Assembly (NCBI GenBank): GCA_014534415.1
Contig: JACVRM010000001.1
Coordinates: forward strand, 1-35,174
Length of the DNA stretch: 35,174 nucleotides
Reading direction: 5' to 3'
Source of the DNA: Thermoleophilia bacterium
GTDB lineage: Bacteria; Actinomycetota; Thermoleophilia; Gaiellales; Gaiellaceae
The position numbers and the translations under genes are program-made. Position 1 is the stretch's first letter. Each line of letters begins with the position of its first letter. The notes under the pieces were generated by a model that saw nothing but the letters and a program-made list of their open reading frames with translations, was not told the origin of the DNA and did not search any database. Shown piece by piece: positions 1,491 to 35,174 of the stretch.

Positions 1491-1511
1491 GAGCCGTCCG
1501 CGCGGGCGCGA

Positions 1512-10326: not shown

Positions 10327-11564
10327 GCGCTGCCGGCGGCCGCCTGGAGACGCGCGCGCCGTCTCGACCACGCCCGGGCCGGCGAGACGAGCACGGCGAC
10401 GATCGCGAGCAGCAGTACGTCGCGCGTAAGGACGAGCCACGTGGCCGTGGCGTCCAGGTCTTCGACGAGATCCCAGTAGCGGTGCGGGAACCAGAGTTGT
10501 GTCAGCACCGCCGCGAGGGCGAGCAAGGCCGAGGCGGCCGCGCCGCGGCGGCCGCCTACCAGTGGGACGAGCGGCAGTAGCCAGATCAAGAACTGCGGCG
10601 AGAGCACCTTGCCGAGCGCGACGAACGCGCAGACGGCCGCCGCCGCGTAGCGAACGAGCCGCTCGCGGTCGCCCGGGTCACCGCGCCGGGCGAACGCCGT
10701 CCAGATGGCGGCCAGCGCTGCGAGCTGGAGCACCGTTTGTCCGGCCGCGAGGACGTCGGCGCCCGTCCCGACGAGGTTCTGCGACCCCGCGCTCGTGCCC
10801 GTCGTCATTTCGATGTCCCCAACCTGGTGCGCCGCAAGCAGAATCGCCGAACCGAGGCTCTCGATCTGAAGACCTCGCGTCGCGTGCATGGAGAAGGCGT
10901 CCCAGAGGCCGCCGGGCGAGATCGCCGCGAACGGCAGCACGCACGCGGCGATCGCGCCGGCGAGGATCGCACCGCAGATGAGCGCCTCGCGGCGCCCCTC
11001 CCTCCGCCAGACGAACGCCAGCGCGAGCGGCACGAGCACGCCCGGAAAGACCTTCACGACCGCGCCCAGCCCCAGGACGGCGCAGCCGACGCGCTCCCGT
11101 CCGCCGACGAGCGCCGCGAGCGCGGCGACCGCGAGCGCGGCCGGCAGGAGATCGAAGCGCGAGAGCACGACCGAACCGAGCGCGAGTGGCAGCACGGCCG
11201 CGAACGCCGGGGGCGCGGCGCGCGCCGCGCCCCGCCGCCCGAGCGCGCTCAGCGAGACGACCATCGCGACCAGCGCGGCCGCCCCGCACAGCCACATCAG
11301 CGCCTCGAAGAGCCGGCGATAGCCGTTGGACCCGTCGCCCACGGTCGGCAGCGCGAAGACCGGCAGCGCGCCGGGCGGGTACTCCACGGCGAAGTCGCGG
11401 TACGGGACCTCGCCCGCCACCATCGCCTCGCCGTACCTCTCGTACACGGGCACGTCGCTGATCGGACGTTCCGCCCAGAAACCCTGGTGCAGCAGTACCC
11501 AGGTGACGAACAGGGCGCCGAGAGCGCCGACTGCGATCGCGATCGTCCCGGCGGACTTGCTCAC
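10323..11564 (-). CDS. Integral-membrane glycosyltransferase, GT87/DUF2029-like (polyprenol-phosphate-sugar dependent)
   Basis: GTG 11564 overlaps the stop of the upstream gene (GTGA). The 413-aa polytopic protein reads VSKSAGTIAIAVGALGALFVTWVLL...DVPVYERYGEAMVAGEVPYRDFAVEYPPGALPVF..., the signature N-terminal loop of DUF2029/GT87 enzymes. The track ORF (878 aa) is an out-of-context extension through the upstream gene. Confidence 0.78.
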   Translation of the reverse strand: MSKSAGTIAIAVGALGALFVTWVLLHQGFWAERPISDVPVYERYGEAMVAGEVPYRDFAVEYPPGALPVFALPTVGDGSNGYRRLFEALMWLCGAAALVAMVVSLSALGRRGAARAAPPAFAAVLPLALGSVVLSRFDLLPAALAVAALAALVGGRERVGCAVLGLGAVVKVFPGVLVPLALAFVWRREGRREALICGAILAGAIAACVLPFAAISPGGLWDAFSMHATRGLQIESLGSAILLAAHQVGDIEMTTGTSAGSQNLVGTGADVLAAGQTVLQLAALAAIWTAFARRGDPGDRERLVRYAAAAVCAFVALGKVLSPQFLIWLLPLVPLVGGRRGAAASALLALAAVLTQLWFPHRYWDLVEDLDATATWLVLTRDVLLLAIVAVLVSPARAWSRRRARLQAAAGSA

Positions 11565-21740: not shown

Positions 21741-22643
21741 CTACGCGAGTACCGCCACCGCGTCTCGCTCGGCCTCGAAGACCGCGTGCTCGACGTCGCC
21801 GAGGTCCTCGCCGTCCGCCTGGAGCGGCAGCGGCCGCCCGCTCCGCAGCTCGATCCGGTCGAGGTCGTGGCCGTAGAGGACGTCGGCCGCGCTCGCCTGA
21901 CCTCGCCCACGCAGCGCGTACGCGAGCAGGCGCGGCAGCACGCGGGGCGAAACGGCGCGCGGCGCTACGAGGTCGAGACCGAGCTCGAACCGCGCCCGCG
22001 GCGCCGCGTGGACCGCCAGCGGACCGGCGAAGGTGTACGGGTCGGCGTTGGCGACGAGCGCGAACGCGGCGCGACCGTGCCCGACGATCTCGAGCTCCGG
22101 CTCGAAGCGGCCGCGCCGCTCCCAGAGCAGGCGCGCGACCGTCCAGACGACGTAGGCGTCGCCCGGGCGCCGCCCGTCGCTTCGCCGGCCGCGGCGGTCG
22201 ACGCGCCGGATGAGCTCGGCGTCGAGCCCGATCCCGGCGGAGAACGTGAACCGCCGGCCGTTGACGCGCCCCAGCGAGATGCGGCGGACCGTCCCGCCGT
22301 CGAGCGCCCGGGCGACGGCTCGCGCGGCGTCCACCGGGTCGCGCGGCACGCCCAGCGCGCGCGGTAGCACGTTCGTGCCCCCGCCCGGCACGAACCCGAC
22401 CGGCACGGGGTCTCGCAGTCCGTTCAGCACCTCGTTGAAGCCGCCGTCGCCCGAGAAGACCACCACCGCGTCGAGGTCCCCCCGCAGCACAGCGGCGAGC
22501 TCGGTCGCGTGACCCGGCCGCTCGGTACGCAGCGTCGTCACGTCCGCGACCCGGCGGAGCGCGCGCTCGACGGCCGCCATGGAGTGCTCGGTGACGCGGC
22601 TCGCGAACGGATTCACGATCAAGGCCACGCGCCGCCTCGTCAC
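21741..22643 (-). CDS. Diacylglycerol kinase-family lipid kinase (YegS/DagK-like)
   Basis: RRVALIVNPFAS...., the nucleotide-binding SGDGGFNEVLNGL, and PVGFVPGGGTNVLPRALG are the DAGK_cat signature. 300 aa. Confidence 0.88.
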   Translation of the reverse strand: MTRRRVALIVNPFASRVTEHSMAAVERALRRVADVTTLRTERPGHATELAAVLRGDLDAVVVFSGDGGFNEVLNGLRDPVPVGFVPGGGTNVLPRALGVPRDPVDAARAVARALDGGTVRRISLGRVNGRRFTFSAGIGLDAELIRRVDRRGRRSDGRRPGDAYVVWTVARLLWERRGRFEPELEIVGHGRAAFALVANADPYTFAGPLAVHAAPRARFELGLDLVAPRAVSPRVLPRLLAYALRGRGQASAADVLYGHDLDRIELRSGRPLPLQADGEDLGDVEHAVFEAERDAVAVLA

Positions 22644-22684
22644 GCGCCCAGCGTACTCGCATCGCTGGACCGGGCGGAAAGACA

Positions 22685-22707
22685 GAAGGCCGGCGATGCC
22701 GGCCTTC
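22685..22707 (-). terminator. Intrinsic terminator of the M6 protease gene
   Basis: On the minus strand: GAAGGCCGGC-AUC-GCCGGCCUUC followed by UGUCUUUCC. A second hairpin precedes it (CUCCUC..ACGCGC..GCGCGU..GAGGAG, 22708-22749). Confidence 0.7.
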
Positions 22708-22752
22708 CATCTACCTCCTCACGCGCAAGCGCGCGTGTTGGACGAGGAGTCT

Positions 22753-25700
22753 CTAGCGGGCGTAGAGCCCGATGTTGTCGAACGTGACCGTCCCGGCGGT
22801 TGCGAAGTCGGTCGGCGCGAAGCCGGTCAGCACGATCCGGATCTCCGCGACGCCGATCGGGATCGCCACCGCCTTTTCGAGGTCGGCGAAGCCGTTCGTC
22901 GCCAGGGGTGCGGTGAGCAGCTTGACCGTGTCGAGCACCTGCCCGGTTGCACTCAGGTAGGCGAGGCTGACGGCCGGGGCCGACGAGGCGCCGATCGCGT
23001 TCACCGAAGCGGTTACGTCGTAGGTCGCGCCGCCGGTGACCGCGATGGGAGCGCTCGTCCAGCTCGGCGAGCCGTGCACGGCCGCGTTCCCGCCCGAACC
23101 CTGCATCTGAGCGCCATGAGAACCGTCCGAGCCGCCGCTCGAGGTGTAGGACGTGGTGCCGGCGCCGGTGCTCTGACTCGACCAGCTCTCCGGAGCGGTG
23201 CCGGCCGCGTTCTGCGTCTCGAAGTCGCCGTTCTCGACCTTGTTCCCCTTGACCTCGACCGTGCGGGTCGCCGAGTTGTTGTTCTCGTTCTCCTCGGCGA
23301 CGAGACCGGTCTTGTCGGCCGTGGCCTTGATCTCATGCTGACCCTTCACGTTGCGGGTGTCCCAGACGATCGCCACCTCGGTCGACGCACCCTTCGCCAG
23401 CGCAGCGGTGTTCGCGAGCCCGAGCACGTTCGTGCCGTCGAGCAGGAACTCGGTTTTCGACGCGGGTGCGATTCCCGGGCCGGCATTCTGGATCGTCGCG
23501 GTGACCTTGACCTTCTCGCCCTCGCGGCCCTTCTGCTGGGCGACGACGAGGTTCGTCACCTGGAGGTCGGGGCCGAGCACCGTCACGGTCACGGTGGCGG
23601 TTCCCGTGAGCCCCTGGGCGTCGGTCACGGTCAGCGTCGCCGTGTAGCTACCCCTCGCGGCGTACGCGCGCGTGACGCTTTGCCCCGTCGCCGTCGGCGA
23701 GCCGTCGCCGAAATTCCACCGGTAGACCAGCTGATCGGCGGGCGTGCTGTCGTCGAAGGAGCCGGCAGCGTCGAACGTGACGGGCTCCCCGGTCCCGGCC
23801 GTCTTCGGCGTGGCGCTGGCGACCGCCGTGGGCGCAGCGTTGACGACGCCGGTGGAGTACTTGAACACCGCACAGCCGGCACCGGCCGTGATCCTCGCGT
23901 TCGCGGTCAGGTCGGAGGGCAGCGCCTCGCTGTTGGCCGTGTGGCCTGCCATCCCGAGCACGTCCAGCGTCAGGCAGCCGTAGTCGAAGTGCCAGAGGCC
24001 GTCGGGCGACGAGTCGTCGTTGAAGTTGTCCACCCAGCCGACGTCACGGAAGCGGCTGTCGCCCGTCGCGGTCGTGAAAGCGGCGTCGCGACACCGGAAC
24101 GGCGTCAGCACACCGGGCTCGGGGTGCGTCTCCTCGATGTTGTTTCCGCAGTCGTACCTCGGCTGCGGCCTCGAGTCGATGTAGTGCTGCCGCGGCGGCT
24201 GCGGCCCGCCGTTGTTGCCGTAGCCGCGCACTTCGTCGGTGTACTCGACGAGCACCCCCGGGTCCCAGCCGATCGCGCCGCGGTCTGACTGGCCGCGCCC
24301 GTTGAAGTCGAAGCCGGAGCGGTCACGCAGCTCCAGGTAGTAGGCGTGGTCGAGCGCGGACGGCTCGTCGGCCTTGATGCGGCTCCAGCCGTCCGTGCAC
24401 TTGGCGGCCACCTTCATGCCCTCGTTGCAGCCGCCCGGGAAGAGGCGCAGCTCGTCCTCCTCCGAGAAGTCGCTCGAGTAGATGACCTGGTTGCCGGCCT
24501 TGATCTCCAGGTCGTCGATGAACCAGCCCGGCCGATCCAAACCAGGGTCGGTGAAGTAGGAGAAGCGCAGCACCACCCCGCGCTTGCCCGCGTACGAGGA
24601 CAGGTCGTACTGGTCCGCGATGAACGGCGAGCCGCTGTCATAGCTGTCCTCGCCGCGGTCGACCGCGACTCGCGCCGGGCCGCCGGCGGCCGCGCCGCTC
24701 GTGCCGGTCAGGCCGTTGTCGAAGTTGTTCAAGCACGCGGAGTTGTGCGGGTTGACGGCCTTGGAGGTCGTGTAGCCCCGCTGCGAGGCGAGCGACGAGT
24801 AACTCGTCCCGTCGGTGCTCGCCAGCACGAACCCGTAGTCGAAGTCCCACTCGATGTCCCAGCTGGACTTGAAGCTGACCGTGATCGGCGTGCCCTCGGG
24901 CACGAATTCCAGCTCGGGCAGGTTCACGTCGAGGTTGTGGCCGGCCTTGGGGGCGCAGCCGAAGTCGTTGCCACGGCCTGACCACCACACGTAGGGCGCC
25001 GAGGCCTGCGTGCGCACCTTCTCGGGATCGATGATCAGACGCGGAGGCAGCTTGAGCGCGTACGCCTCGGAGTTGTGGATGTTCTGGTCGCCGTTCGCCG
25101 CCGAGAGCGTGTAGGCCTGCCCGCTCGGCGTCTGCCACTCGATCTTGCCCGTGTCGTTCTTGATCTCCTCCCAGTCGGACACGTTGCGCGTCTCGCCCGG
25201 CTGGAGGAACTTGGGGACGACCCAGCCGAGCTCTTGCTTCGAGAAGATCGTCATGTGCTGCGAGTAGTCCGCAGCCATCAGGTTCCAGTCGTTGTACGCC
25301 GAGTAGCCCGCGTAGTAGTCCGGCAGTCCGAGGTGATGGCCGTACTCGTGCGCGATCACGCTCGCGTGGTCCATCGCGTCCTCGGGGTTGATGTTGTACG
25401 GACCGACCCGTACGTGCACCGGCAGGCTGTCGCGACCGGTGCCACCGTTCGCCCGACAGTCGGCGAACTCGGCGTAGCTCTCGTTCTCCCAGCACTGCGG
25501 GACGCCCTCCAGGTCCGTCAGCTGGTCGTCCGAGACGTAACCCGCCAGGCCGGTGACCGGATCCTGGTACGAGTTCTCGAGCGACGAGGAGTGCGGCCAC
25601 GGGTTGTCGTAGGGCACGCCGTCCTCGCAGAAGATCGTCCCGAGCTGCGAGCTTCCGTTGCCGCCGCAGCCGGCGAACACGACCATCGTGAAGTCGACGA

Positions 25701-27516
25701 GGCCGTCCTTGTCTGAGTCGAACTGGTTGTAGTCGATCTCCGGGTCGGCGATCTGAACCGCGTCGTAGATCATCTTGCTCGTGTCGCCGCAGGCCTCGTC
25801 GATGGCGATCGTCGTCGCGGTGAACACCGGGAAGTCGCCGCCGTAGTACTCGGTGTCGCCCGGCAGCTGGTACCAGCCGTCGCGGATGCGGTCGGGATAG
25901 ACCGGCGTCCCGTAGAGCTCCTTGGTGTTACCCAGCGTGGCGCCGCGGCACGTCGGCTTCTTGACGTCGCGCTCGGTGAAGCGGAAGCCCGGCTCGTATT
26001 CGAAGTTCGCCGCCGCGATGTCGGCCGACGGAACGGTGCCGTCCGGGAAGAGCTGCCCGAAGGACATCTCCTGGTAGAGGTTGAACGTCGAGCCGGCGAA
26101 GTCGGGCGAGTTGACGACCGTCTCCAGGCGCTGGCCGCTGTGGCGCGACTTGTGCTTACGATCGCGGAAGTCGACCGGGATCATCGGGAACGGCTTGTCG
26201 CCGTATCGCGCCGTCTCGAACCCGCCGGTGGGGGGGATGACCTTCGGGCCGTGGCTGTCGGAGCGCAGCGCACCCGCGAGGCCGTCGTACGTCATCGAAG
26301 CGGTCGACGACAGGTCCTTCCACACGATGCGCGCGTCCTCGGTCGTGGTCAGCGCTCGGCCCTCGGCGACGAGGGTCGCCGTCTCGCCGGCCGCGACCGT
26401 GGGGATGTCCCAGCGGATTGTCCCGCTCGTGACCGTGGCCGAGCCAGAGGCGGCGAGTGGCTTCGCGCTGAGGAACCTGGCGCCGGGCGGCTGCGGTATC
26501 GAGACGGCCACGTTGTTCTTCGCCGCGTCTGAGAAGTTCTTGACGAAGACACGGAACGGGTACTTCTCGCCGGGCTTGACCCACCCGGTCGAGGAGACGA
26601 ACTTGTTCTCGAGCAGCAGCGTCGGGGCCGCGGCGGCGAGCACGACCGGGCCGGCGCCCTGACCGCTCCACTCGCCGGACGTCTGCTGGCTTCCACCGTT
26701 GCCGACGAACGGCGTCGCATCGGTGTAGGTCGCGGTCGCGCGGACGCCGAGCGTCAGCCTGTAGTTCGTGCCCGCACCCGGGTCGAGATTCGCCGTCGCC
26801 GAGCCCGGGAAGCTCGCCGCGAACGCGCCGGTCTCATCTGCCTGGACGCTCACGGGGCCGGCGAGCTGCGTCCCGTCGGGTGCGTGAAGCGTCAGCTCGA
26901 GCGATGCCGGCACCGGCGTGCGCTGGTCGGCACCGCAACCCACGCAGGCAAGGCTGTCGTACTCGACGACCGTTCCGGTCACGTCGACCGACTCACCCGG
27001 CGCGAACGACTCCTCGGTCGCCTTGAGGTCGATCTCGAGCGGGTTCAGCACGAACGTCGCCTGACCGCTTCCCTCGTCGGGAGCGGCCACCGAGGCGCGA
27101 ACCGTGATCGTCCCCGGATCCCAGTGCTGTTTCGGGACGATCAGGAAGGCGACGCGGCCGGCCGAGCTCGCCGTCACGTTCTGTGTGTCGACGACGGTGC
27201 CGTCGCTGTCGATGAACTCGACCTTGACGGGCTTGGCCTGCGCGGGAACGATCGAGACTCGCCCCCAGCCGCAGTCCTGCCGCCGCAGCGTGCTCTTTGC
27301 ATAGCCGACGTTGTTCGTGCAGATCGGCTGCGGCTGGATGTCCTCGCGGATGTCCCAGGACGCGAACGTGAACGTCGCGCCGTCGGGTGCTGCTGCACCG
27401 GCGCCCACGAGACAGAGCGGGACAGCGGCAGTGAGAGCAGCCAGCACGGCGACGAGCGTCGCCCGCGACGGGCACCAGCCTCGGCGTACGAAAGAGTTGC
27501 GACCGACTCGCGACAT
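22753..27516 (-). CDS. Secreted multidomain M6 (immune inhibitor A / InhA-like) zinc metalloprotease, 1587 aa, with PKD, CARDB-like and CBM-like C-terminal modules
   Basis: ATG 27516 is preceded by GAGGAGG with a 9-nt spacer. Signal peptide ...ATLVAVLAALTAAVPLCLVGAGAAAP. The zinc motif HEYGHHLGLPDYY (HEYGH at 25336-25350) is diagnostic of family M6. PKD repeat (VYRWNFGDGS...YTATLTVTD, ~23.6-23.85 kb). CARDB-like module (DLQVTNL...ENNENNNSATRTV). The terminal jelly-roll ends TFDNIGLYAR. The track start (27630) adds an implausible leader spanning the promoter. Confidence 0.9.
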   Translation of the reverse strand: MSRVGRNSFVRRGWCPSRATLVAVLAALTAAVPLCLVGAGAAAPDGATFTFASWDIREDIQPQPICTNNVGYAKSTLRRQDCGWGRVSIVPAQAKPVKVEFIDSDGTVVDTQNVTASSAGRVAFLIVPKQHWDPGTITVRASVAAPDEGSGQATFVLNPLEIDLKATEESFAPGESVDVTGTVVEYDSLACVGCGADQRTPVPASLELTLHAPDGTQLAGPVSVQADETGAFAASFPGSATANLDPGAGTNYRLTLGVRATATYTDATPFVGNGGSQQTSGEWSGQGAGPVVLAAAAPTLLLENKFVSSTGWVKPGEKYPFRVFVKNFSDAAKNNVAVSIPQPPGARFLSAKPLAASGSATVTSGTIRWDIPTVAAGETATLVAEGRALTTTEDARIVWKDLSSTASMTYDGLAGALRSDSHGPKVIPPTGGFETARYGDKPFPMIPVDFRDRKHKSRHSGQRLETVVNSPDFAGSTFNLYQEMSFGQLFPDGTVPSADIAAANFEYEPGFRFTERDVKKPTCRGATLGNTKELYGTPVYPDRIRDGWYQLPGDTEYYGGDFPVFTATTIAIDEACGDTSKMIYDAVQIADPEIDYNQFDSDKDGLVDFTMVVFAGCGGNGSSQLGTIFCEDGVPYDNPWPHSSSLENSYQDPVTGLAGYVSDDQLTDLEGVPQCWENESYAEFADCRANGGTGRDSLPVHVRVGPYNINPEDAMDHASVIAHEYGHHLGLPDYYAGYSAYNDWNLMAADYSQHMTIFSKQELGWVVPKFLQPGETRNVSDWEEIKNDTGKIEWQTPSGQAYTLSAANGDQNIHNSEAYALKLPPRLIIDPEKVRTQASAPYVWWSGRGNDFGCAPKAGHNLDVNLPELEFVPEGTPITVSFKSSWDIEWDFDYGFVLASTDGTSYSSLASQRGYTTSKAVNPHNSACLNNFDNGLTGTSGAAAGGPARVAVDRGEDSYDSGSPFIADQYDLSSYAGKRGVVLRFSYFTDPGLDRPGWFIDDLEIKAGNQVIYSSDFSEEDELRLFPGGCNEGMKVAAKCTDGWSRIKADEPSALDHAYYLELRDRSGFDFNGRGQSDRGAIGWDPGVLVEYTDEVRGYGNNGGPQPPRQHYIDSRPQPRYDCGNNIEETHPEPGVLTPFRCRDAAFTTATGDSRFRDVGWVDNFNDDSSPDGLWHFDYGCLTLDVLGMAGHTANSEALPSDLTANARITAGAGCAVFKYSTGVVNAAPTAVASATPKTAGTGEPVTFDAAGSFDDSTPADQLVYRWNFGDGSPTATGQSVTRAYAARGSYTATLTVTDAQGLTGTATVTVTVLGPDLQVTNLVVAQQKGREGEKVKVTATIQNAGPGIAPASKTEFLLDGTNVLGLANTAALAKGASTEVAIVWDTRNVKGQHEIKATADKTGLVAEENENNNSATRTVEVKGNKVENGDFETQNAAGTAPESWSSQSTGAGTTSYTSSGGSDGSHGAQMQGSGGNAAVHGSPSWTSAPIAVTGGATYDVTASVNAIGASSAPAVSLAYLSATGQVLDTVKLLTAPLATNGFADLEKAVAIPIGVAEIRIVLTGFAPTDFATAGTVTFDNIGLYAR

Positions 27517-27568
27517 TCGAGTTGACCTCCTCGTCCAATGACACCACTTTACGTGGAGTCTACGGATG

Positions 27569-27596
27569 ACTATAGCACCACCGGGTAGGGTGTCAA
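27569..27596 (-). promoter_or_regulatory. Promoter of the M6 protease gene with inverted repeat in the spacer
   Basis: Minus strand: TTGACA-CCCTACCCGGTGGTGC-TATAGT (16-nt spacer). The repeat ACACC-N9-GGTGC spans the -35 edge to the -10 edge. It has the same layout as the promoters at 29195-29223 and 34935-34963. Confidence 0.6.
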
Positions 27597-27634
27597 GAAG
27601 CGCCCACGCGAGGAACCCGCCTGCTGGCACAACG

Positions 27635-27663
27635 CAGCAGGCCCGCCGTGGGCGGGCCTGCTG
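27635..27663 (-). terminator. Hairpin terminator downstream of the 479-aa S8 protease gene
   Basis: Minus strand: CAGCAGGCCCGCC-CAC-GGCGGGCCUGCUG, a 13-bp perfect stem, followed by CGUUGUGCC (weak U tract). Confidence 0.55.
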
Positions 27664-27702
27664 TCGGACGAGGAAGTGTCCGGGAGAAGCTGGTTTTCCC
27701 GG

Positions 27703-29142
27703 CTAGCCGCCGATCGCGCGCAGCGCGTCCACGCGGCCGTAGCCGTAGAAGCTGTCGTAGCCGGCGGCGCCGATGTCGACGGAGGTCTCCTTGAGCTTCG
27801 CCTCCACCTGGTCAGGCTTCATCACGACGTCGCCGTCGGGAGCGACCTTGCCGTACCTGCTCACGATCAGCGCCGCCACGCCGGCCGCGTGCGGAGACGC
27901 CATCGACGTACCGTTCGCCGTCAGGTACTGGCTGCCCGGGAACGTCGAATACACCGCCGCCCTGCCGTCGCTCGCGTCGGCATCGCCGCCGGTCGACCCG
28001 TTGCCGCCCGGCGCCGTCACGTCGACCGCGCCGAAGCCGTAGTTCGAGTAGCTCGCCTTCACGCCGTCCGCGCCGATCGACGAGACGCCGATCACGCCGG
28101 GCGTCTGACCCGGGACGACCCTGCAGTCCGCGTACTGCGGGCTGCCGAGATCGAGCCTCGAGTTTCCGAGCGCGGCGACGGGGACGACGCCGCGGCTGCG
28201 CGCGTACGCGATGGCGCGCTCGATGGCCGTGACGGTCGCGCTGTCCTGCGGGTTGCACTCGATGAGCTGCTCGTCGTCGGCGTAGAAGCTCATATTCACG
28301 ACGTCGAGCTTGATGTCGCCCGCGTAGGTGATCCCGTCGACGACGGCGCTCCACCAGCACGCGTACGCCTGGCAGACGGTGACGGGCACGAGCGTGACGT
28401 CCGGAGCGACGCCCACGATGCCGACCCCGTTCGACTGGGCCGCGATGCTGCCGGCCACGTGCGTTCCGTGGAAGCTCGTGTCCGTGCAAGGCAACGGAGC
28501 ACCGACGCCGGGCGTCACCGAGACGCGTGCGCGTGAGCAGTCGACGTTCGACGACCCGCCGAGCACGCCCATGTCGGTGAAGTCCACGTGCGTGCTGTCG
28601 ACACCCGTGTCGAGCACGCCCACGTCGACCGTCCGCGAGCCCGCGTGCCGGGCGTGCGCCTGGTTGGTCCGGATCATCTTCATGTCCCACTGCAGATTCT
28701 CGGCCGGATCGTCGTGCAGGTCGGGATTACTCCGGCGGTTGTCCGACTTCGGCTGGGCGTCGGCGCCCTTCGGCGTGACGGAGCGGTCCTCGCTGACCGA
28801 ATCGATCACGGCGTAGCCGCCCGTCACCGCGTACTCCTGCACGAGCTGCGCGAAGTTTCCGTTCGCCGACTCGGCCACGATCACGCCGATTTGCTTGCTC
28901 AGGTCGTTCGTGATCGTGCCGCCGGCGGCCTGGACCGCGTAGACGGCGTACTGATGCGTGACGGCGTAGACGGCGTAGTCCGAGCCGACGGCGTACCCAT
29001 CGGTCACCGCGTAGTCGCCGTCCAGCGTGATGATGTAGCGCTTCGTATCGACCGCGTAGCCGCTCGCGGAGCTCAGCGTGAGACCACCGAGCGCCACCGC
29101 AGCCACGAGAACGGCCAAAAGAAGGCGGTGTAGGCGTAGCAT
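27703..29142 (-). CDS. Secreted S8 (subtilisin-like) serine protease, 479 aa, with YAV-repeat-containing propeptide
   Basis: ATG 29142 is preceded by GGACGAGGAGG. Signal peptide MLRLHRLLLAVLVAAVALGGLTLSSASG. Catalytic triad contexts VGVLDTGVD, HGTHVAGSIA and GTSMASPHAAG. Confidence 0.9.
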   Translation of the reverse strand: MLRLHRLLLAVLVAAVALGGLTLSSASGYAVDTKRYIITLDGDYAVTDGYAVGSDYAVYAVTHQYAVYAVQAAGGTITNDLSKQIGVIVAESANGNFAQLVQEYAVTGGYAVIDSVSEDRSVTPKGADAQPKSDNRRSNPDLHDDPAENLQWDMKMIRTNQAHARHAGSRTVDVGVLDTGVDSTHVDFTDMGVLGGSSNVDCSRARVSVTPGVGAPLPCTDTSFHGTHVAGSIAAQSNGVGIVGVAPDVTLVPVTVCQAYACWWSAVVDGITYAGDIKLDVVNMSFYADDEQLIECNPQDSATVTAIERAIAYARSRGVVPVAALGNSRLDLGSPQYADCRVVPGQTPGVIGVSSIGADGVKASYSNYGFGAVDVTAPGGNGSTGGDADASDGRAAVYSTFPGSQYLTANGTSMASPHAAGVAALIVSRYGKVAPDGDVVMKPDQVEAKLKETSVDIGAAGYDSFYGYGRVDALRAIGG

Positions 29143-29194
29143 TCTCTTCCTCCTCGTCCGTGGTGTTGCGGCGGCGCTTAAACCGCCACGCCGC

Positions 29195-29223
29195 ATTTAA
29201 CACACCACTGGAGAGGGTGGCAA
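29195..29223 (-). promoter_or_regulatory. Promoter of the 479-aa S8 protease gene with inverted repeat in the spacer
   Basis: Minus strand: TTGCCA-CCCTCTCCAGTGGTGTG-TTAAAT (17-nt spacer). About 40 nt around it match the LVIVD-gene promoter (TCTCATCTTGmCACCCT.....AGTGGTGTGTT). Confidence 0.6.
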
Positions 29224-29279
29224 GATGAGATTTCAGGTCAATCTGATGGAGGTTTGAGCAGCTTTGGCCCGGAAAATCT

Positions 29280-31898
29280 CTACCCGCGTTCGTCGAGCCG
29301 AAGCAAGAACGAGCCGAATGAGCCCGCGCCGCCGCCACCGAGCTTCGCTCGGCTGACGGCGACGTAGTAGCGGCCAGGCGCCGGCGACGGGAGGGTCAGG
29401 ATCTGCGGCGCTCCGCTCGGAGTCGACCCCCGCTCCGCGTTCGCGGACAGATCGGTGACTCCCGGCTGGCTGAACGGATGCGTCGTCGCATCGAGATCGA
29501 GGTCGGCGTCGTAGATGTACAGGTCATAGGTTTCGTCGGACGGGCTGACCGCGTGCACCGAGAAGCGGGCCGCGCTCAAGCCGGCCGCGAGCTCGACCGG
29601 GTAGACGAGCCAGTCGGCGGACGAACCGGTGCCGGCGCTGCCTGCGGCCGACGGCCAGACCGTGTCGCCCTTGGCGAAGACGTCGAGCGCGGAAGCGACC
29701 GACGACTGCGCGCCTGACGAGACTCCGGCGACGCGGTTCGCGTCGTGGAGCGGCACCGACGCGAAGACGGGGATCTCGAGCACCTGCCCGTTCGACACCG
29801 TCGCGACGACGGTGCCGCTGTACGAGCCTGGTACCGCGCCGGCAGGCGCGGTGGCGGTGAACGTGACGAGCGCGTCACCCCCCTTCGGGACGCTGGCCCG
29901 AGCAGGCAGTCGGATCGTCCAGCCGCCCTTCCCGGTCGTGATCGGCCGGCTCGTATCCGAGGGCCGGCCGGACTGGAAGGCGAAGCGCACGGTGTGCGGG
30001 CCCTGGCCGGGAGCCGCGTGGAGGACGAACCTCTGGCTCAGCGACGAGCCGGCCGGCAAGACACCCAGCTGCCAGCTGCCCTGGAGGTCTCGCGGACCCG
30101 TGCCGGCTGCATCCCCGCTGCCCGAGGCCGCGCTGTACGCGACGATGCCGCTGCGTAGCGCCTGGATCGCCCGCGTCACGTGCACCTTGCCGGCGCCCTG
30201 CGCGAGCGGCCCGACGAACGGATCGGCGCCGCGGTTGCGCGCCTCGTACAGGGTCAGCGTGCCGAGGAAGAGGTCGATGATCTGCACGCCGAGGCTGCAG
30301 AAACCGAAGAGCAGAACGTCGAGCTCGGGTGCCGGGCAGCTCGTAGACGTAGAGCCGTCGACCGTCAGCATCCACCGCGACTCGTAGAGGCCTGTTTCGG
30401 CCGTGTTCATCAGCGCCGCGCGAACGAGCGCGTGGCTTCGCGCCGGCAGGCCCGTCACTCCCGAGGAGCCCACCGGGCTGGCGCCGTGCTGGGTGCGGTA
30501 GGCCTGAAGCATCAGCGCGGCGACGCCTGCGGTGGCCGGGCTGGCCATCGACGTACCGGTTGCGGTCGCGTAGAGCGGATCGGCGCGCGTCCCCCTGTTC
30601 AGGTCGTTCTGCGTGATCGCAACGCCCTCGACCGCCTGCGGCGCGACGATGTTGTAGCCGGGCGCCGCCAGATCCGGCTTGAGCCACAGATCGCCGGTCG
30701 GGCCGCGCGACGAGAAGGACGAGATCGACGGCGGCTGCGCCCCGCTGCCGGACGCGCACTCCGCGCGGGTCGGCAGCCAGCCGGCGCAGATGTCGCCGGA
30801 CAGCGTGTCGTCGTGGTTGACGTCGTAGTCCTTCGCCGCCGCGGCGACCGACAGGACCTGCGCGGCGGAGCCGGGCGATTCGAGCGCGCTGCCGACGTAC
30901 GGCCCGCTGTTGCCGACAGCCGCCACGATCGTCGTACCGAAGCGCACTGCGAGCCGGTTGGCGACGTAGCTGACGAAGTCCACGTCGCTCCCCGAGTTCA
31001 GCCGGGTCGGACGAGACTCGGAGCCGAGGCTCAGGTTGACCACATCGGCGCCGACCGACTCGCAGCCGAGCGGGCCCGTACCCGCCGGTAGGGCAGCCCA
31101 CTCGAGCGCTGCGACGAGGTCGCTGTTGATACCTGCACCCGCGTCCGTGAGCACCTTGGCGACGGCGAGTTCTGCGTCGGGCGCGACCCCTGCGTAGCGC
31201 CCGTCGTCCGCGGACTCGACCGGCACCCCCTCGCCGGTGCCCGTCGCGATGCCGGCGACGTGCGTCCCGTGTCCGTGGCCGTCCTGCGTCCCGAGCGCAC
31301 ACGTCCCCGCGAGGAAATTGCGGCTGCCGACGACCTTGCCCGGGTTCGGCAGGAGACTCGACCAGTGGCGGAAGTCGAGGTCGTCGAAGTCGGCGTGCAG
31401 GGGATCCAGGCCCGTGTCCAGGACGGCCACGCGCACTCGTGCGCCGGTAATCCCCGCGCTCCACCACGGCTGGGCGCCGACGTCGCCCGTCGTGGCGCGA
31501 GACTGGTCGCCAGGAGGTTCGTGTCCGAGCACCGTGACCGCCTCGACCGGCGTCAGCCACCGGACCCACGGGAGCGCCGCGACGTCGAGGACCGACGCCG
31601 GGGTCGACGCGAGCGCGAACGCGTTCACGGAGCGGTACGCCCGCAAGATGCGCGCTCCGCGCAGCGCGAGCGCAGCCGCGTGGAGCGAGTCGTTCGGCTC
31701 CGAGAGCACTACGAAGTACGCCAGCTCGCCCGGCTGCAGGCCGGCCAGCGTGGCGACCCGGGGATCGGTCGGGGCCGCCCCTGCGACGAGCGCGTCGAGG
31801 CCGCCGCGCAGCTTGCCGGCGTCTGCCGCGCCCGCCGGCGCCAGGCAGAGCGCGGCGACGAGCGTCGCCAGCCCAGCGATGCCGCTGCGTGTCCGCAT
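29280..31898 (-). CDS. Secreted S8 serine protease, 872 aa, with C-terminal pre-peptidase (PPC)-like domain
   Basis: Signal peptide MRTRSGIAGLATLVAALCLAPAGAADA. Triad contexts VAVLDTGLD, HGHGTHVAGIA and GTSMASPATAG. The C-terminus ...DLYIYDADLDLDA...GRYYVAVSRAK...SFLLRL is PPC-like. The RBS is GGACGAAGGAAG. I see no promoter in the 69-nt gap after trmB, so it is probably co-transcribed with trmB. Confidence 0.9.
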   Translation of the reverse strand: MRTRSGIAGLATLVAALCLAPAGAADAGKLRGGLDALVAGAAPTDPRVATLAGLQPGELAYFVVLSEPNDSLHAAALALRGARILRAYRSVNAFALASTPASVLDVAALPWVRWLTPVEAVTVLGHEPPGDQSRATTGDVGAQPWWSAGITGARVRVAVLDTGLDPLHADFDDLDFRHWSSLLPNPGKVVGSRNFLAGTCALGTQDGHGHGTHVAGIATGTGEGVPVESADDGRYAGVAPDAELAVAKVLTDAGAGINSDLVAALEWAALPAGTGPLGCESVGADVVNLSLGSESRPTRLNSGSDVDFVSYVANRLAVRFGTTIVAAVGNSGPYVGSALESPGSAAQVLSVAAAAKDYDVNHDDTLSGDICAGWLPTRAECASGSGAQPPSISSFSSRGPTGDLWLKPDLAAPGYNIVAPQAVEGVAITQNDLNRGTRADPLYATATGTSMASPATAGVAALMLQAYRTQHGASPVGSSGVTGLPARSHALVRAALMNTAETGLYESRWMLTVDGSTSTSCPAPELDVLLFGFCSLGVQIIDLFLGTLTLYEARNRGADPFVGPLAQGAGKVHVTRAIQALRSGIVAYSAASGSGDAAGTGPRDLQGSWQLGVLPAGSSLSQRFVLHAAPGQGPHTVRFAFQSGRPSDTSRPITTGKGGWTIRLPARASVPKGGDALVTFTATAPAGAVPGSYSGTVVATVSNGQVLEIPVFASVPLHDANRVAGVSSGAQSSVASALDVFAKGDTVWPSAAGSAGTGSSADWLVYPVELAAGLSAARFSVHAVSPSDETYDLYIYDADLDLDATTHPFSQPGVTDLSANAERGSTPSGAPQILTLPSPAPGRYYVAVSRAKLGGGGAGSFGSFLLRLDERG

Positions 31899-31967
31899 CT
31901 CGCTTCCTTCGTCCGAGCCGGCGCACGGCCGGTGTGCTCTGAGCCTACTGCGGTTCGGCGCTTTCGC

Positions 31968-32801
31968 CTAGGCCGTCTTGGCGACCGGGACGAGGCGGTC
32001 GTACGCCGCGTCGAAGTCGAGGCCCTGCGCCCAGACGGCGTCGAAGGCGATCGTCAGCGTCTCGGCGAGCGAGCGATGCTCGACGACGACCATGGTCAGG
32101 TCCGAGCCGCCCTCGACCGGGTCTTCCATCCCGAACATCACGTACCGCCTGTCGATGATGACGAGCTTGAGCGGCAGCTCCTCGACGAAGCGGGCCTCCT
32201 CGCCGGCCTGGATGAAGCCGCGGACTCCTTCGATCGTCTCCGGATCGTCGAAGATCGAGAACTCGTAGACGCTCTTGGCGGTGTGCGTGCGTGCGACCTC
32301 GACGCCCTTCTCCTCCTCCTGGGGCGGGGTCGCGTACGGCGGCTTCGTGAAGACCAGAATCTCGTCCTTGATCTCCTCCTGGAGCTCGCTGAACCGCTCG
32401 TTGATCGCGCGGCGGTCGCGCAGTACCTCGATGTAGTCGAGCGGGTCGGTGACCTCCTGGCCCGCGCTGAAGGCCGGCGAGAGCTCTCCGATCATCTCGT
32501 CGGCGGCGCGCTCCAGCTCTTCGACGGCCTGACGGCGGTCCTCCACGAGGCGCTCGATGGCCGTTTCCGGAGCCGAGCCGACGTACTTGACCACGCGTCC
32601 CGGCCGGGTCGAGGCGAGTCCGCGCTCCACGAGGCTCGCGAGCACGTCGTAGATGCGCTGCCGCGGCACGCCGGCGATGCGCGCCACCTCGGCGGCCGTC
32701 GAGGATCCGCGCCGGATGAGCGCGAGGTACGCCTTGGCTTCGTACATCGTGAGCCCGAGGCGAGTCAGCTGATCGACGTAACGCTGCTCGTTCACCGACA
32801 C
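31968..32801 (-). CDS. TrmB-family transcriptional regulator
   Basis: The N-terminal wHTH LTRLGLTMYEAKAYLALIRRGSSTAAEVARIAGVPRQRIYDVLASLVERGL is the TrmB (PF01978) signature. 277 aa with a C-terminal sensor-like domain. The -10 box ends 2 nt before GTG 32801, so the true (leaderless) start may be GTG 32795. Confidence 0.9.
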   Translation of the reverse strand: MSVNEQRYVDQLTRLGLTMYEAKAYLALIRRGSSTAAEVARIAGVPRQRIYDVLASLVERGLASTRPGRVVKYVGSAPETAIERLVEDRRQAVEELERAADEMIGELSPAFSAGQEVTDPLDYIEVLRDRRAINERFSELQEEIKDEILVFTKPPYATPPQEEEKGVEVARTHTAKSVYEFSIFDDPETIEGVRGFIQAGEEARFVEELPLKLVIIDRRYVMFGMEDPVEGGSDLTMVVVEHRSLAETLTIAFDAVWAQGLDFDAAYDRLVPVAKTA

Positions 32802-32803
32802 CC

Positions 32804-32833
32804 ATCGTAGGGTGCCACCCGGACGAGTGTCAA
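32804..32833 (-). promoter_or_regulatory. trmB promoter, probably leaderless, with palindrome GGGTG-G-CACCC in the spacer
   Basis: Minus strand: TTGACA-CTCGTCCGGGTGGCACCC-TACGAT-gg-GTG. The palindrome (32810-32820) uses the same CACCC/GGTG half-sites as the three island promoters, but in everted order. Confidence 0.55.
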
Positions 32834-32891
32834 AGGCGCGTCCTCTGTTAAGGGCGCGGATTCGACCGGGCTCAGTAACTCCGTTACGGAC

Positions 32892-32917
32892 GAGCGGCCG
32901 CCTCCCGGCGGCCGCTC
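32892..32917 (-). terminator. Hairpin downstream of the LVIVD-repeat gene (terminator-like)
   Basis: GAGCGGCCGCC-(4 nt)-GGCGGCCGCTC, a perfect 11-bp stem 25 nt after the stop. There is no clear U tract on the minus strand. A small second hairpin follows (GTAAC-GGA-GTTAC). Confidence 0.5.
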
Positions 32918-32941
32918 GAGCAACTTCTGTGTTAGCGGCGG

Positions 32942-34894
32942 TTAGCCGGCGCCGACCTGGATGTTGCCCTTCAGCAGGACGCCGCCGGCGCCGTAGCCGT
33001 TGCCCAGCACCATCCGGAAGGTGTCCACGCTGCCGGGCTCGCCGAAGTCCTCCACCTCGACGAAGAGACTGACGCCGGGCACACCGTTCACGGTCGCCGT
33101 TCCGGTGAACGTCGCCTTGTTCCCGGTGCGGACGAACGAGTCGATCGAGGTCGACTTCACCTGCATCTTCGTCCCGTGGTCGACGTAGGTCAGCTGGCCG
33201 GTCGGGGCGCCAACCGCGAACGCTGCGTTGAAGCCGAAGTTCGCACGGCCGCCGGCGGCCGTGCCACGCAGGATCGACAGCTCGGCCAGCTCACCCGAGA
33301 CCTGGCCGCCGCCCGTCGCCTTGCCCGGAGTGTTGATGGGAGGCAGGGAGATGCAGTTCGCGCCGTCGCACGTCTTGAAGCGGTACACGTCGAAGCCGCG
33401 CGCCATGTCGCCGGCGTAGACGTAGCCCTTGTACTCCTTCGCCGACCAGGTGTCGGCGCCCGGCATGACGTTCCAGCCCAGCGTGTTCCCCCAGTCCGTG
33501 AACTGGTCTTCGGCGATGCCGTCGGTGGAGCTCGGCGCCCCCGAGAAATCGAGCCGCCAAACGCCCGCGCCGTAGTGAGCGCTGACGAGCTCGCGTGCCC
33601 GGAGGCTCGACACACCGTCGAAGCCGCCTTGGATCGGCCCCGGCCCGGCGGTGCCGTTGCCGCCGTTGCGGAACACGTGGATCGTGCAGGCGCGCTCGGT
33701 GCGACCGAGACCCGCGAGTACAGGCTCGAGGGCGTCGGCCGCAAGCAGCGGGTTCGGGTAGAACCACGTGCCCAGCCGCACCGGGTTCGACGGCGCCGCC
33801 GTAGCCGTCTCGGGCTTGCCGTCGATGGGTTCGAGAGTGTAGAAGTGCGCGCCGCCGATGATCCCGTCGGGCCCGGTGTTGCACTGTGTCTGGCTGAGGC
33901 CGCCGCCGCGCTCGTCGGTGAAGACGACGATCCTGCCGTCGGAGCTGACGTCCGCCTGGTGGTCGGTCGTGAGGTTGTAGCGGTTGTTCGCTCCGCCGGG
34001 CAGCGCATTCTCGGAGATCCACGCGATACGCAGCGGCTGCTGACCCTGTTCCAGTTGCGCGAGCACGTTCGAGACGTCGACGATGAACGTCCCGCCGACG
34101 CCGCCGGGGCCCGAGGGGCTGGCGAGGTACATGGTGTTTCCGTCGCGCGAGAACGACGAATCGTGCGCCGTACCGCCGGTGTCCGTCAGGATCTTCCCCC
34201 TGAAGACCGGGGTCGCACCACGGAGGTCGACCACCTCGACCCCGCTCGCGGACGTGTTCACGGCGAGCCAGGTGCCGCTGGGATGCAGCGTGATCGTGTG
34301 GGCTCCGCCGGAGACCGCGTTGAGGTAGCAGTCGACGAGCGACGTCGTGAACTTCGCGGTCTGCGGGTCGAACGTGAGCTTGACGACGTCGACGCCGCCG
34401 CGAGTGCTCGTCGGATTCTTCTCCTTGAGGCACGCCGAGGCGTGGACGGGGATGTTCACCGGGTCGAACGCGATCACGGCGGTGTCGCCGCGCACCGAGA
34501 CGTCGTTCTGCCAGCCCGGATCGACGTAGCCTCCGGCGATCGTCGGATGCGCCGGGTCGGTGATGTCGAAGATCCGCATCCCGGCGCCCATCGTCCCGAG
34601 GAACGCGTAGTCGCGGACCTTGCCGCTCGCATCAGTGCGCGATTGAAACTCCACGTCGGTTCCGACGAAGCCGCAGACGTTGGCGAGGTGCGCGATGTTC
34701 TTCGCCGAGCGCGGGGGCTGACCGGGCGTCGCGAGCGCCTCGCACGGCAACGCCACGTTGTGTGCGGGATCGAGCGGATCGCCGGCGAGCGCCTGCGCAC
34801 CCGCGACGGCCAGCGTCGCGGCCACGACCGCGATCGCGGCACCGGGGAAAACCTGCAAGAGACGGCGGCGCAGCGGTGTGCTCTCGGTGCTCAC
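32942..34894 (-). CDS. Secreted LVIVD-repeat-type beta-propeller protein with distinct ~120-aa C-terminal beta domain
   Basis: GTG 34894 is preceded by GGACGAGGAGG with a 5-nt spacer. Signal peptide ...RRRLLQVFPGAAIAVVAATLAVAGAQALAG. Repeated motifs of the GMRIFDITDPAHPTIAGGY / GVEVVDLRGATP / GTFIVDVSNV type are characteristic of LVIVD propellers. The C-terminal module ends ...FVEVEDFGEPGSVDTFRMVL..GY..GG.LLKGNIQV. Confidence 0.8.
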   Translation of the reverse strand: MSTESTPLRRRLLQVFPGAAIAVVAATLAVAGAQALAGDPLDPAHNVALPCEALATPGQPPRSAKNIAHLANVCGFVGTDVEFQSRTDASGKVRDYAFLGTMGAGMRIFDITDPAHPTIAGGYVDPGWQNDVSVRGDTAVIAFDPVNIPVHASACLKEKNPTSTRGGVDVVKLTFDPQTAKFTTSLVDCYLNAVSGGAHTITLHPSGTWLAVNTSASGVEVVDLRGATPVFRGKILTDTGGTAHDSSFSRDGNTMYLASPSGPGGVGGTFIVDVSNVLAQLEQGQQPLRIAWISENALPGGANNRYNLTTDHQADVSSDGRIVVFTDERGGGLSQTQCNTGPDGIIGGAHFYTLEPIDGKPETATAAPSNPVRLGTWFYPNPLLAADALEPVLAGLGRTERACTIHVFRNGGNGTAGPGPIQGGFDGVSSLRARELVSAHYGAGVWRLDFSGAPSSTDGIAEDQFTDWGNTLGWNVMPGADTWSAKEYKGYVYAGDMARGFDVYRFKTCDGANCISLPPINTPGKATGGGQVSGELAELSILRGTAAGGRANFGFNAAFAVGAPTGQLTYVDHGTKMQVKSTSIDSFVRTGNKATFTGTATVNGVPGVSLFVEVEDFGEPGSVDTFRMVLGNGYGAGGVLLKGNIQVGAG

Positions 34895-34934
34895 GGAAAC
34901 CTCCTCGTCCACGGGGCGGTGCTCTGACGCCGGC

Positions 34935-34963
34935 AGTAAACACACCACTCTTAAGGGTGTCAA
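34935..34963 (-). promoter_or_regulatory. Promoter of the LVIVD-repeat gene with inverted repeat in the spacer
   Basis: Minus strand: TTGACA-CCCTTAAGAGTGGTGTG-TTTACT (17-nt spacer), with the repeat ACACC-N9-GGTGT at 34942-34960. The track ORF start (TTG 34963) is in fact the -35 box. Confidence 0.6.
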
Positions 34964-34996
34964 GATGAGAAAGCGGGAGAAACCGTGAGGAAAGAG

Positions 34997-35174
34997 CTAT
35001 CTCGGTGTCGCGTACCCGCGCATGCCGTCGAGCAGCAACGCGTAGAAGCGGTCGGCCAGCTCGTCGGTGTCGCGACCGGGCTCGAGCCAGGTGTACGCCC
35101 AGTTGGCGGCCGACAGCACGAGCAGCGCGGCCGTCGCGTCGTCCAGATCGGTGCGGAAGTCGCCTCCCTCGCGC
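34997..35174 (-). CDS. C-terminal fragment of a probable TetR/AcrR-family regulator (N-terminus beyond the window end)
   Basis: The reverse strand reads ...LLVLSAANWAYTWLEPGRDTDELADRFYALLLDGMRGYATPR* (TAG at 34997-34999). This resembles the last helices of TetR_C domains. No HTH is visible, so the family call is tentative. Confidence 0.5.
   Translation of the reverse strand, partial: REGGDFRTDLDDATAALLVLSAANWAYTWLEPGRDTDELADRFYALLLDGMRGYATPR

Follow-up and report, generated by a model that had tools for sequence, protein, structure and literature searches.

In Bacillus subtilis the expression of aprE is controlled by DegU, ScoC, AbrB and CodY, and in the Bacillus cereus group that of inhA is controlled by PlcR. 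To our knowledge, almost nothing has been established on the control of extracellular proteolysis in the uncultured soil Gaiellales/Thermoleophilia and Limnocylindria. The stretch of DNA considered here, contig JACVRM010000001.1 of a Thermoleophilia bacterium (a single contig of 35,174 bp and about 72% G+C, referred to in its entirety as the window), carries genes for three predicted secreted peptidases and a predicted secreted beta-propeller protein together with trmB, which encodes a TrmB-family regulator, and copies of a 23-bp palindrome ahead of their transcription units. Our reading, to which we assign a probability of about 0.7, is that in this island we see the local core of a transcriptional regulon that comprises secreted peptidases and the surface proteins that accompany them, and whose predicted controller is the TrmBL2-like protein encoded at 31968-32801.

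The characterised systems closest to this protein are archaeal. TrmBL2 represents the branch of the TrmB family that lacks the sugar-binding subdomain (PMC4158304); it is an abundant chromatin protein that occupies coding and intergenic DNA, largely without sequence specificity, and represses when bound at promoters (PMC4158304, PMC3031468). TrmBL1, or Tgr, binds the Thermococcales glycolytic motif (TGM), TATCAC-N5-GTGATA; autoregulation has been reported, and the outcome depends on where the site lies with respect to the promoter (PMC4158304). The TrmBL2-type domain organisation had been noted in 19 bacterial genera by 2011 (PMC3031468). A trmB gene in a bacterium is not new in itself: TrmB-domain proteins are widespread in bacteria.

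An earlier examination of the window's letters and open reading frames (ORFs), termed here the sequence-only reading, had described a co-oriented island of secreted proteases and a propeller protein built around a TrmB-family regulator; its gene and family calls are upheld. Between 22,680 and 34,963 every credible gene lies on the minus strand, with G+C at third codon positions (GC3) of 0.89-0.93 (n=5), in the transcription order propeller, trmB, large S8, small S8, M6-like protease. These genes and their promoters are, in that order:

34935-34963, minus strand: propeller promoter, -35 TTGACA at 34963-34958, -10 TTTACT at 34940-34935, spacer 17 nt
32942-34894, minus strand: beta-propeller protein, 650 amino acids (aa), with a signal-like N-terminus, identified from a post_COAP_1 domain and a fold search
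32804-32833, minus strand: trmB promoter, -35 TTGACA at 32833-32828, -10 TACGAT at 32809-32804, spacer 18 nt
31968-32801, minus strand: trmB, TrmBL2-like transcription factor, 277 aa from GTG 32801 (PF01978; GC3 0.93)
29280-31898, minus strand: large S8 subtilase, 872 aa (Peptidase_S8, 145.5 bits)
29195-29223, minus strand: small-S8 promoter, -35 TTGCCA at 29223-29218, -10 TTAAAT at 29200-29195
27703-29142, minus strand: small S8 subtilase, subtilisin-like, 479 aa (Peptidase_S8, 158.8 bits)
27539-27596, minus strand: M6 promoter with two operators, -35 TTGACA at 27596-27591, extended -10 TATAGT at 27574-27569
22753-27516, minus strand: M6/InhA-like metalloprotease, 1587 aa from ATG 27516 (Pfam domains and an HEYGH motif)

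The palindrome, TGACACCAC-N5-GTGGTGTCA, was revealed by aligning many copies from related loci; its left half provides the TTGACA of the -35 box. Exact matches to the pattern TTGMCACYC-N6-GTGGYR number four in the 35 kb, one ahead of each transcription unit and none elsewhere, and the chance expectation for the window is 0.55 even with 2 mismatches allowed. When sites were scored with a symmetric position weight matrix (PWM), four stood out at 17.7-24.1 bits, the next best position reaching 9.5 bits, and the scan detected no copy of the motif at the housekeeping genes of the window.

At the propeller promoter the operator, O1 (34940-34962; exact pattern match, 22.3 bits), occupies the -35 box and the spacer, and at the small-S8 promoter O1 lies at 29200-29222 (exact pattern match, 17.7 bits). 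For neither of these did the PWM scan of the window find a second operator downstream, the best scores there being below 0 bits. The M6 promoter, which scores 11/12 in a promoter scan and has a TG extension, has both O1 (27573-27595, 18.3 bits) and O2 (27539-27561, 24.1 bits), the latter lying shortly past the -10 box, where it covers the predicted transcription start and the first part of the 5' untranslated region; this paired arrangement recurs in many target promoters elsewhere. The trmB promoter (10/12 in the promoter scan) holds a degenerate operator copy, TTGACACTCGTCCGGGTGGCA, in which TTGACAC...GTGG is kept and which scores 2.0 bits; this variant is also shared by L003-L006, the closest relatives. 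The sigma70-like promoters noticed earlier ahead of the propeller, small-S8 and M6 genes are indeed present, but they are not plain ones: the -35 TTGACA forms part of an operator half-site.

The protein collection holds more than 2,000 relatives of the regulator, of which the best 120 share 68-92% identity with it, and those with names come from Gaiellaceae and Limnocylindrales. Retrieval through the trmB orthologue yielded 80 genome loci (1.19 Mb; 10 kb each side), in all of which trmB is present by construction. They derive from Thermoleophilia/Actinomycetota and from Chloroflexota (Limnocylindria), and include complete chromosomes and megabase contigs, so the spread over two phyla is not a binning artefact. 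Two checks set by the sequence-only reading come out in its favour at these loci: trmB orthologues are linked to proteases, and the promoter motif is there. Of the 72 loci, drawn from both phyla, that extend far enough downstream, 41 have an S8 gene as the next gene after trmB (24 of the large type, 17 of the small). The palindrome, as TTGMCACC-N7-GTGGTR with at most 1 mismatch, occurs 92 times in the 1.19 Mb as against 0.6 times in dinucleotide shuffles, an enrichment of about 150-fold. The genes immediately preceded by sites are trmB and those for small-type S8, M6, propeller, S53 sedolisin, further S8 and PPC-/BNR-domain proteins, and one locus, L005, carries an M6 orthologue with two operators upstream.

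Placement of the sites relative to trmB is regular. Within 100 nt upstream of the gene a site of at least 12 bits is present in 58 of 78 loci, and about 14-17 nt separate the end of the operator pattern from the start codon; this leaves room for a -10 box alone, so the trmB mRNA is probably leaderless, and in the window a leaderless start at GTG 32795 (275 aa) is more likely than one at GTG 32801. All 17 trmB-to-small-S8 gaps contain an operator, of 18-28 bits and placed as in the window; the 24 gaps between trmB and a large S8 gene (median 88 nt) are all without one, which fits an operon of trmB with the large S8 gene. Two architectures are thus recurrent, and both are found in the window: an operator-bearing trmB promoter driving the trmB-large-S8 operon, and satellite genes with their own operator promoter, to which a second operator, 34-36 bp farther downstream, is often added.

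Because the 80 genome loci had been chosen through trmB, metagenome contigs were scanned with the dual-operator DNA pattern alone. Only 51 metagenome stretches matched. The genes downstream encode small-type S8 proteases, S8 proteases with PA, I9 and fn3 domains or with PKD domains, and M6 proteases, as well as S15 X-Pro dipeptidyl peptidase, large DUF11/PKD proteins and, in one case, a cupin-domain protein. A trmB orthologue is present on 13 of the 51 stretches, and on 12 of the 21 that are at least 5 kb long. The operator motif predicts both peptidase genes and trmB. We have hardly any doubt that this cis-element is a genuine regulatory signal that is conserved and links these genes; synteny, the common operator and the motif-only scan together give strong support to the dedicated secreted-protease regulon around trmB that had been predicted from the window alone.

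The trmB product has a TrmB-type winged helix-turn-helix domain (PF01978, 72.5 bits against a cut-off of 25.6, residues 12-74), and by profile it matches the TrmBL2 structures 5bpd, 5box and 5bqt over residues 6-258 (E = 4e-21; residues 5-260 of the 5bpd chain). Against the NCBIfam TrmBL2 equivalog it scores 74.5 bits, short of the cut-off of 530, and is therefore a homologue of TrmBL2, not an orthologue; scores with the TrmB and TrmBL1 equivalogs are 55-67 bits (cut-offs 600-650), from matches confined to residues 4-122. No match to the sugar-binding subdomain PF11495 (Regulator_TrmB) was found in the protein, which is 275-277 aa long compared with about 340 aa for classical members. Y51 and D52, within the invariant stretch PRQRIYDVL, are invariant in 31 orthologues; the Tyr-Asp pair that contacts DNA in TrmB and TrmBL2 is Y50 and D51 (PMC4158304). 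An AlphaFold2 model, built from a shallow alignment of 31 sequences, is confident for the winged helix-turn-helix and for a long helix at 78-116, where the block values of the predicted local distance difference test (pLDDT) are 86-93; this helix, the dimerisation coiled coil in the family, aligns to the TrmBL2 and TrmB chains. As to the earlier idea that the regulon is ligand-gated, these data neither support nor exclude it: support is wanting because the protein, matched to TrmBL2 over its full length, is a homologue from the branch without the sugar-binding subdomain.

The circuit we propose would work as follows. A dimer or tetramer of the TrmB-family protein would bind the palindrome; with O1 covering the -35 box and spacer and O2 the transcription start, RNA polymerase would be excluded and the genes repressed. 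trmB itself would be transcribed, probably without a leader, from an operator-bearing promoter jointly with the large S8 gene, and the propeller, small-S8 and M6 genes would form separate, terminator-bounded units, each under its own operator. That the trmB product is the protein that binds the operator we regard as probable, since trmB recurs in the motif-only set, the operator overlaps trmB's own promoter in most lineages, its geometry is TGM-like, and the Tyr-Asp pair is invariant. Repression is favoured less firmly, on the grounds that O1 lies on the -35 box and spacer, O2 on the start site, and the promoters are otherwise near consensus; activation is the minority alternative because archaeal members of the family can do either (PMC4158304).

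Several points weigh against this scheme. The trmB operator of the window is degenerate, which makes autoregulation less certain in this clade than in other lineages and leaves control of both trmB and the large S8 gene uncertain here. TrmBL2 binds DNA largely without specificity, so homology to it does not by itself guarantee sequence-specific binding by the protein of the window. The C-terminal domain of the modelled regulator, based on the 31-sequence alignment, has pLDDT values below 50 and allows no inference of a ligand pocket. In 27 of the 72 loci the genes downstream of trmB are unrelated ones (for example MobA-like transferase, uricase or major facilitator superfamily (MFS) transporter genes), and in Actinomycetota a second conserved regulator, of the TetR family, flanks the module. 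More generally, every step that leads from the common motif to a TrmB protein that binds and represses is inferred from sequence.

The second regulator marks the left border of the module in the window:

35000-35173, minus strand: 3' part of a TetR-family gene truncated at the contig end (TetR_C_24, E = 3e-7)

trmB had been taken for the only complete regulator gene of the island, which it is, but the partial gene at the window edge turns out to encode the C-terminus of a TetR protein, a conserved neighbour of the module. Full-length TetR orthologues adjoin the module in other loci (e.g. L001:9379-9951); tetR stands at the module's 5' edge in all Thermoleophilia-type loci and is absent from the Chloroflexota loci. 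It looks like part of a backbone comprising tetR and, on the far side of the module, genes for a lipid kinase and the E1a, E1b and E2 subunits of a 2-oxoacid dehydrogenase; the adjacent kinase and dehydrogenase genes are candidate TetR targets.

Could the palindrome be bound by this TetR neighbour, or by an unlinked factor, with TrmB just co-regulated or regulating, for example, sugar genes? TetR proteins bind palindromes too, and tetR (75-97% identity) is found at the module's 5' edge in 16 loci from genomes and 14 from metagenomes, frequently with an operator-bearing promoter immediately after it. But 52 of the 64 genome loci without tetR within 10 kb keep strong operators, 92 sites in all, and of 26 tetR genes none has an operator within 200 nt upstream, compared with the 58 of 78 for trmB. 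The TetR neighbour is disfavoured as the binder on these grounds, and the operator itself has the hexamer-N5-hexamer, CAC/GTG geometry of a known TrmB-family site; we think this whole class of explanation unlikely, although an unlinked factor may yet prove to be the binder. Similarly unlikely, in our estimate, is that TrmB binds the operator and acts there as an activator or dual regulator. O1 does overlap the -35 box, where some bacterial activators also sit; its centre, however, falls between the -35 and -10 boxes, which are separated by normal spacers of 16-18 nt, and O2 lies over the predicted start site, both positions being typical of bacterial steric repression. The -35 and -10 boxes are moreover near consensus (10-11 of 12 positions), and such promoters should need no activation.

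The explanation to which we give least credence, and very little, dispenses with common control altogether: the shared sequence would be just a strong promoter typical of the lineage, or else what an alternative sigma factor recognises, present ahead of genes that merely cluster. A perfect TTGACA in the left half-site, with -10-like hexamers at the right spacing, is what such a promoter would provide. The element is nevertheless an extended 23-bp palindrome, and its O2 copies, which occur on either strand, lie downstream of the -10 box, where no promoter element is expected; it is absent from the housekeeping genes of the window, and throughout the 1.19 Mb its occurrences are upstream of trmB and secreted-protein genes or are O2 copies. 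Control of a secreted-peptidase regulon by the TrmBL2-like protein thus remains the reading we prefer.

The boundaries of the transcription units were examined by a fold-energy test, which yielded three terminators:

32891-32918, minus strand: hairpin terminator after the propeller gene, 12-bp G+C stem (-36.7 kcal/mol, z = -3.2)
27635-27663, minus strand: hairpin terminator after the small S8 gene, 13-bp stem (z = -3.7)
22680-22712, minus strand: hairpin terminator after the M6 gene, 15-bp stem and U-rich tail (z = -3.9), at the right end of the module

No terminator hairpin was detected by this test after trmB (z = +0.4) or the large S8 gene (z = +0.25), and the 69-nt gap between these two genes contains no hairpin, promoter or operator. 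Both parts of the transcription map drawn in the sequence-only reading agree with this: the propeller, small-S8 and M6 genes each have a promoter and a terminator of their own (z = -3.2 to -3.9), and trmB and the large S8 gene are probably co-transcribed.

All four predicted exported proteins begin with a signal-like N-terminus, as had been noted: judged by inspection, the propeller protein, both S8 proteases and the M6-like protein have a positively charged N-terminus followed by a hydrophobic segment (12-residue Kyte-Doolittle maximum 2.4-3.2). Checked against profile models, the family assignments made earlier stand above cut-off for the S8 proteases, for TrmB and, in part, for M6; the LVIVD assignment of the propeller protein falls just below threshold, although its structural model is propeller-like.

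In the M6-like protease the match to Peptidase_M6 (PF05547; 31.8 bits, cut-off 22) covers profile positions 184-260 only, with a zinc motif, HEYGH, at residue 723. An InhA-like MAM domain (55 bits) and PKD, CARDB and DUF11 domains are also present; the score with NCBIfam TIGR03296, 65.3 bits, is under the cut-off of 110.8, and comparison with the PDB gave a weak match to InhA (4yu5) plus matches to collagenase PKD domains. The 1587-aa protein is, by its sequence, M6-like and divergent. The small S8 protease has its DTG, HGTH and GTSMASP motifs intact, at residues 178, 225 and 411, and its top relatives in the PDB are subtilisins DY, BPN' and Carlsberg. Its propeptide (residues 29-110; window positions ~28810-29060, minus strand) contains nine Tyr-Ala-Val tripeptides, as in DYAVTDGYAVGSDYAVYAVTHQYAVYAV, an unusual short-repeat expansion. 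In the large S8 protease the corresponding motifs are at residues 161, 210 and 448, with D161, H213 and S450 as the catalytic residues. For both operon partners the best relative of solved structure is a Thermococcales protein, namely 3afg, a subtilisin-like protease, in the case of the large S8 protein and TrmBL2 in that of the regulator.

The propeller protein has a C-terminal NCBIfam post_COAP_1 domain (96.7 bits, cut-off 40), which the sequence-only reading had not mentioned. LVIVD (PF08309) scores 19.6 bits, just under the Pfam threshold of 20.2, and is recorded for many close homologues. The AlphaFold2 model (mean pLDDT 74.9) matches seven-bladed WD40-like propellers in Foldseek, with target-normalised TM-scores of about 0.6; these matches are to generic WD40-like propellers only and offer no functional lead, and a sequence search against the PDB gave no match. 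Homologues at 57-70% identity come from Gaiellaceae and Limnocylindria. The gene adjoins trmB or the small S8 gene in several loci and is a recurrent member of the module.

Beyond its right end the module is followed by a gene of the backbone:

21741-22643: DAGK-type lipid kinase, backbone gene after the module (DAGK_cat, 72 bits)

In the closest relatives, L001-L004, the gene order is tetR-trmB-kinase, with trmB directly before the lipid kinase gene, and the peptidase and propeller genes are therefore a variable insert around trmB; the peptidase content of the module varies among close relatives. Judged from gene order, the module is a variable insert within the conserved backbone that runs from tetR to the lipid kinase and 2-oxoacid dehydrogenase E1a/E1b/E2 genes. 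Strong operators between trmB and the kinase gene are kept in three of the four loci, in a gap that holds no peptidase gene (L001:11215-11273 and L004:10922-10979, with two sites apiece, and L003:10884-10906, with a single one; 14-23.5 bits). These may be either relics of a lost peptidase promoter or a sign that the kinase gene is under the same control there.

The module does not have the marks of a mobile genomic island, a possibility that we reject: tRNA and Rfam scans found no tRNA gene and no Rfam family in the 35-kb window, no transposase or integrase turned up when the main ORFs beyond the island were scanned with Pfam, and G+C is similar inside the island (0.66-0.74) and outside it (0.69-0.75). 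The same absence of tRNA genes and of transposase or integrase domains in the ORFs scanned bears out the earlier statement that mobility is not supported. Housekeeping proteins of the window are 72-89% identical to counterparts in metagenome-assembled genomes (MAGs) of Thermoleophilia and Gaiellaceae.

Some further features of the window and the loci deserve mention. The other end of the window (3-1511, minus strand) holds a gene, cut by the contig end, whose product joins an adenylate/guanylate cyclase catalytic domain to an NTPase of the STAND/NACHT type. An ORF of 608 aa (11561-13387, minus strand; GC3 0.91), flanked by genes for a GT87 glycosyltransferase and a GtrA-like membrane protein, has a strong coding signal and no Pfam match. 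In five Limnocylindria-type loci (L019, L024, L030, L036 and L053) the place after trmB is taken not by a peptidase gene but by one for a MobA-like nucleotidyltransferase and, in convergent orientation, a uricase-like one, so any peptidase targets must lie elsewhere in the genome. One Gaiellaceae MAG, DATLYU01, has two trmB copies on different contigs (L058 and L063), each adjoining a tetR gene; these may be paralogous modules in one organism or come from a mixed bin.

A bolder extension of the scheme, which we consider rather improbable as a whole, would make the module a laterally exchanged, self-contained "protein-foraging switch" of Thermoleophilia and Limnocylindria. The repressor would share an operon, under only a weak operator in this clade, with a "scout" subtilase, the large S8 protein, whose basal activity on environmental protein would free a signal, either a peptide or an amino acid; once this had been perceived by the TrmBL2-type C-terminal domain, the tight dual-operator promoters of the other peptidases would be derepressed. 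Were this the case, a protein of TrmBL2-like type would act in bacteria as a regulator that is both sequence-specific and responsive to a ligand, and one predictable on-switch would govern extracellular proteolysis in two soil lineages that are abundant and uncultured.

The narrower reading, of a peptidase regulon predicted to be controlled by the TrmBL2-like protein, has consequences of its own. With a defined regulator, an operator of 23 bp and a list of targets that recur in two phyla, peptidase control would become predictable from sequence and trackable in metatranscriptomes. A bacterial TrmBL2-type branch that is apparently sequence-specific and has a non-sugar regulon bears on the evolution of chromatin-like and specific modes of binding. 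In addition, the operator-repressor pair, with strong sigma70-type promoters from an organism of 72% G+C, could serve as an expression switch in high-GC hosts.

A literature search, with most subscription-journal papers outside its reach, found no bacterial TrmB-family regulator of extracellular proteases, and neither this operator nor this module. The nearest reports are a paper on the secretome of Thermococcus TrmBL4, which describes no protease regulon, and one on MmtA1, a mycobacterial protein that has only the winged helix-turn-helix domain.

Comparison with the characterised systems sets the locus apart from each of them. The Bacillus circuits built on DegU, ScoC, AbrB and CodY, or on PlcR, resemble it in placing subtilisin- and M6/InhA-type secreted proteases under dedicated control by nutritional or population state; they differ in using unrelated regulator families and other operators, and in having no regulator-protease operon with dual-operator satellites. 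Classical TrmB of Pyrococcus furiosus and Thermococcus litoralis (3qph) is similar in the DNA-binding domain and dimerisation helix (E = 5e-10, residues 9-109), but the similarity stops after the coiled coil: TrmB is 338 aa long, has a sugar-binding effector domain and acts on sugar ABC transporter operons through TACT-N3-AGTA. TrmBL1/Tgr has a DNA-binding domain of the same family, and its site shares with the operator here, CACCAC-N5-GTGGTG, the hexamer-N5-hexamer layout and the inner CAC...GTG; it differs in its sugar-binding domain, its effectors (maltose, maltotriose, fructose), its role in glycolysis, gluconeogenesis and sugar uptake, and its archaeal TBP/TFB promoters, whereas the protein here has no sugar domain, secreted peptidases as its predicted targets and sigma70-type promoters. 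TrmBL2 of the Thermococcales (PF0496/TK0471) is the closest, being alike in size (about 264-277 aa), in the succession of winged helix-turn-helix, long helix and C-terminal domain without a sugar subdomain, in the conserved Tyr-Asp pair, and in homology over the full length (residues 6-258). Unlike TrmBL2, the protein of the window comes from a bacterium and is associated with a 23-bp palindrome, sharply defined and present at few promoters, which suggests a specific mode of binding in this bacterial branch. What appears to be new, then, is a predicted bacterial repressor of TrmBL2-like type with a secreted-peptidase regulon and a dual-operator sigma70 design, common to two soil phyla between which the circuit has perhaps been shared laterally.

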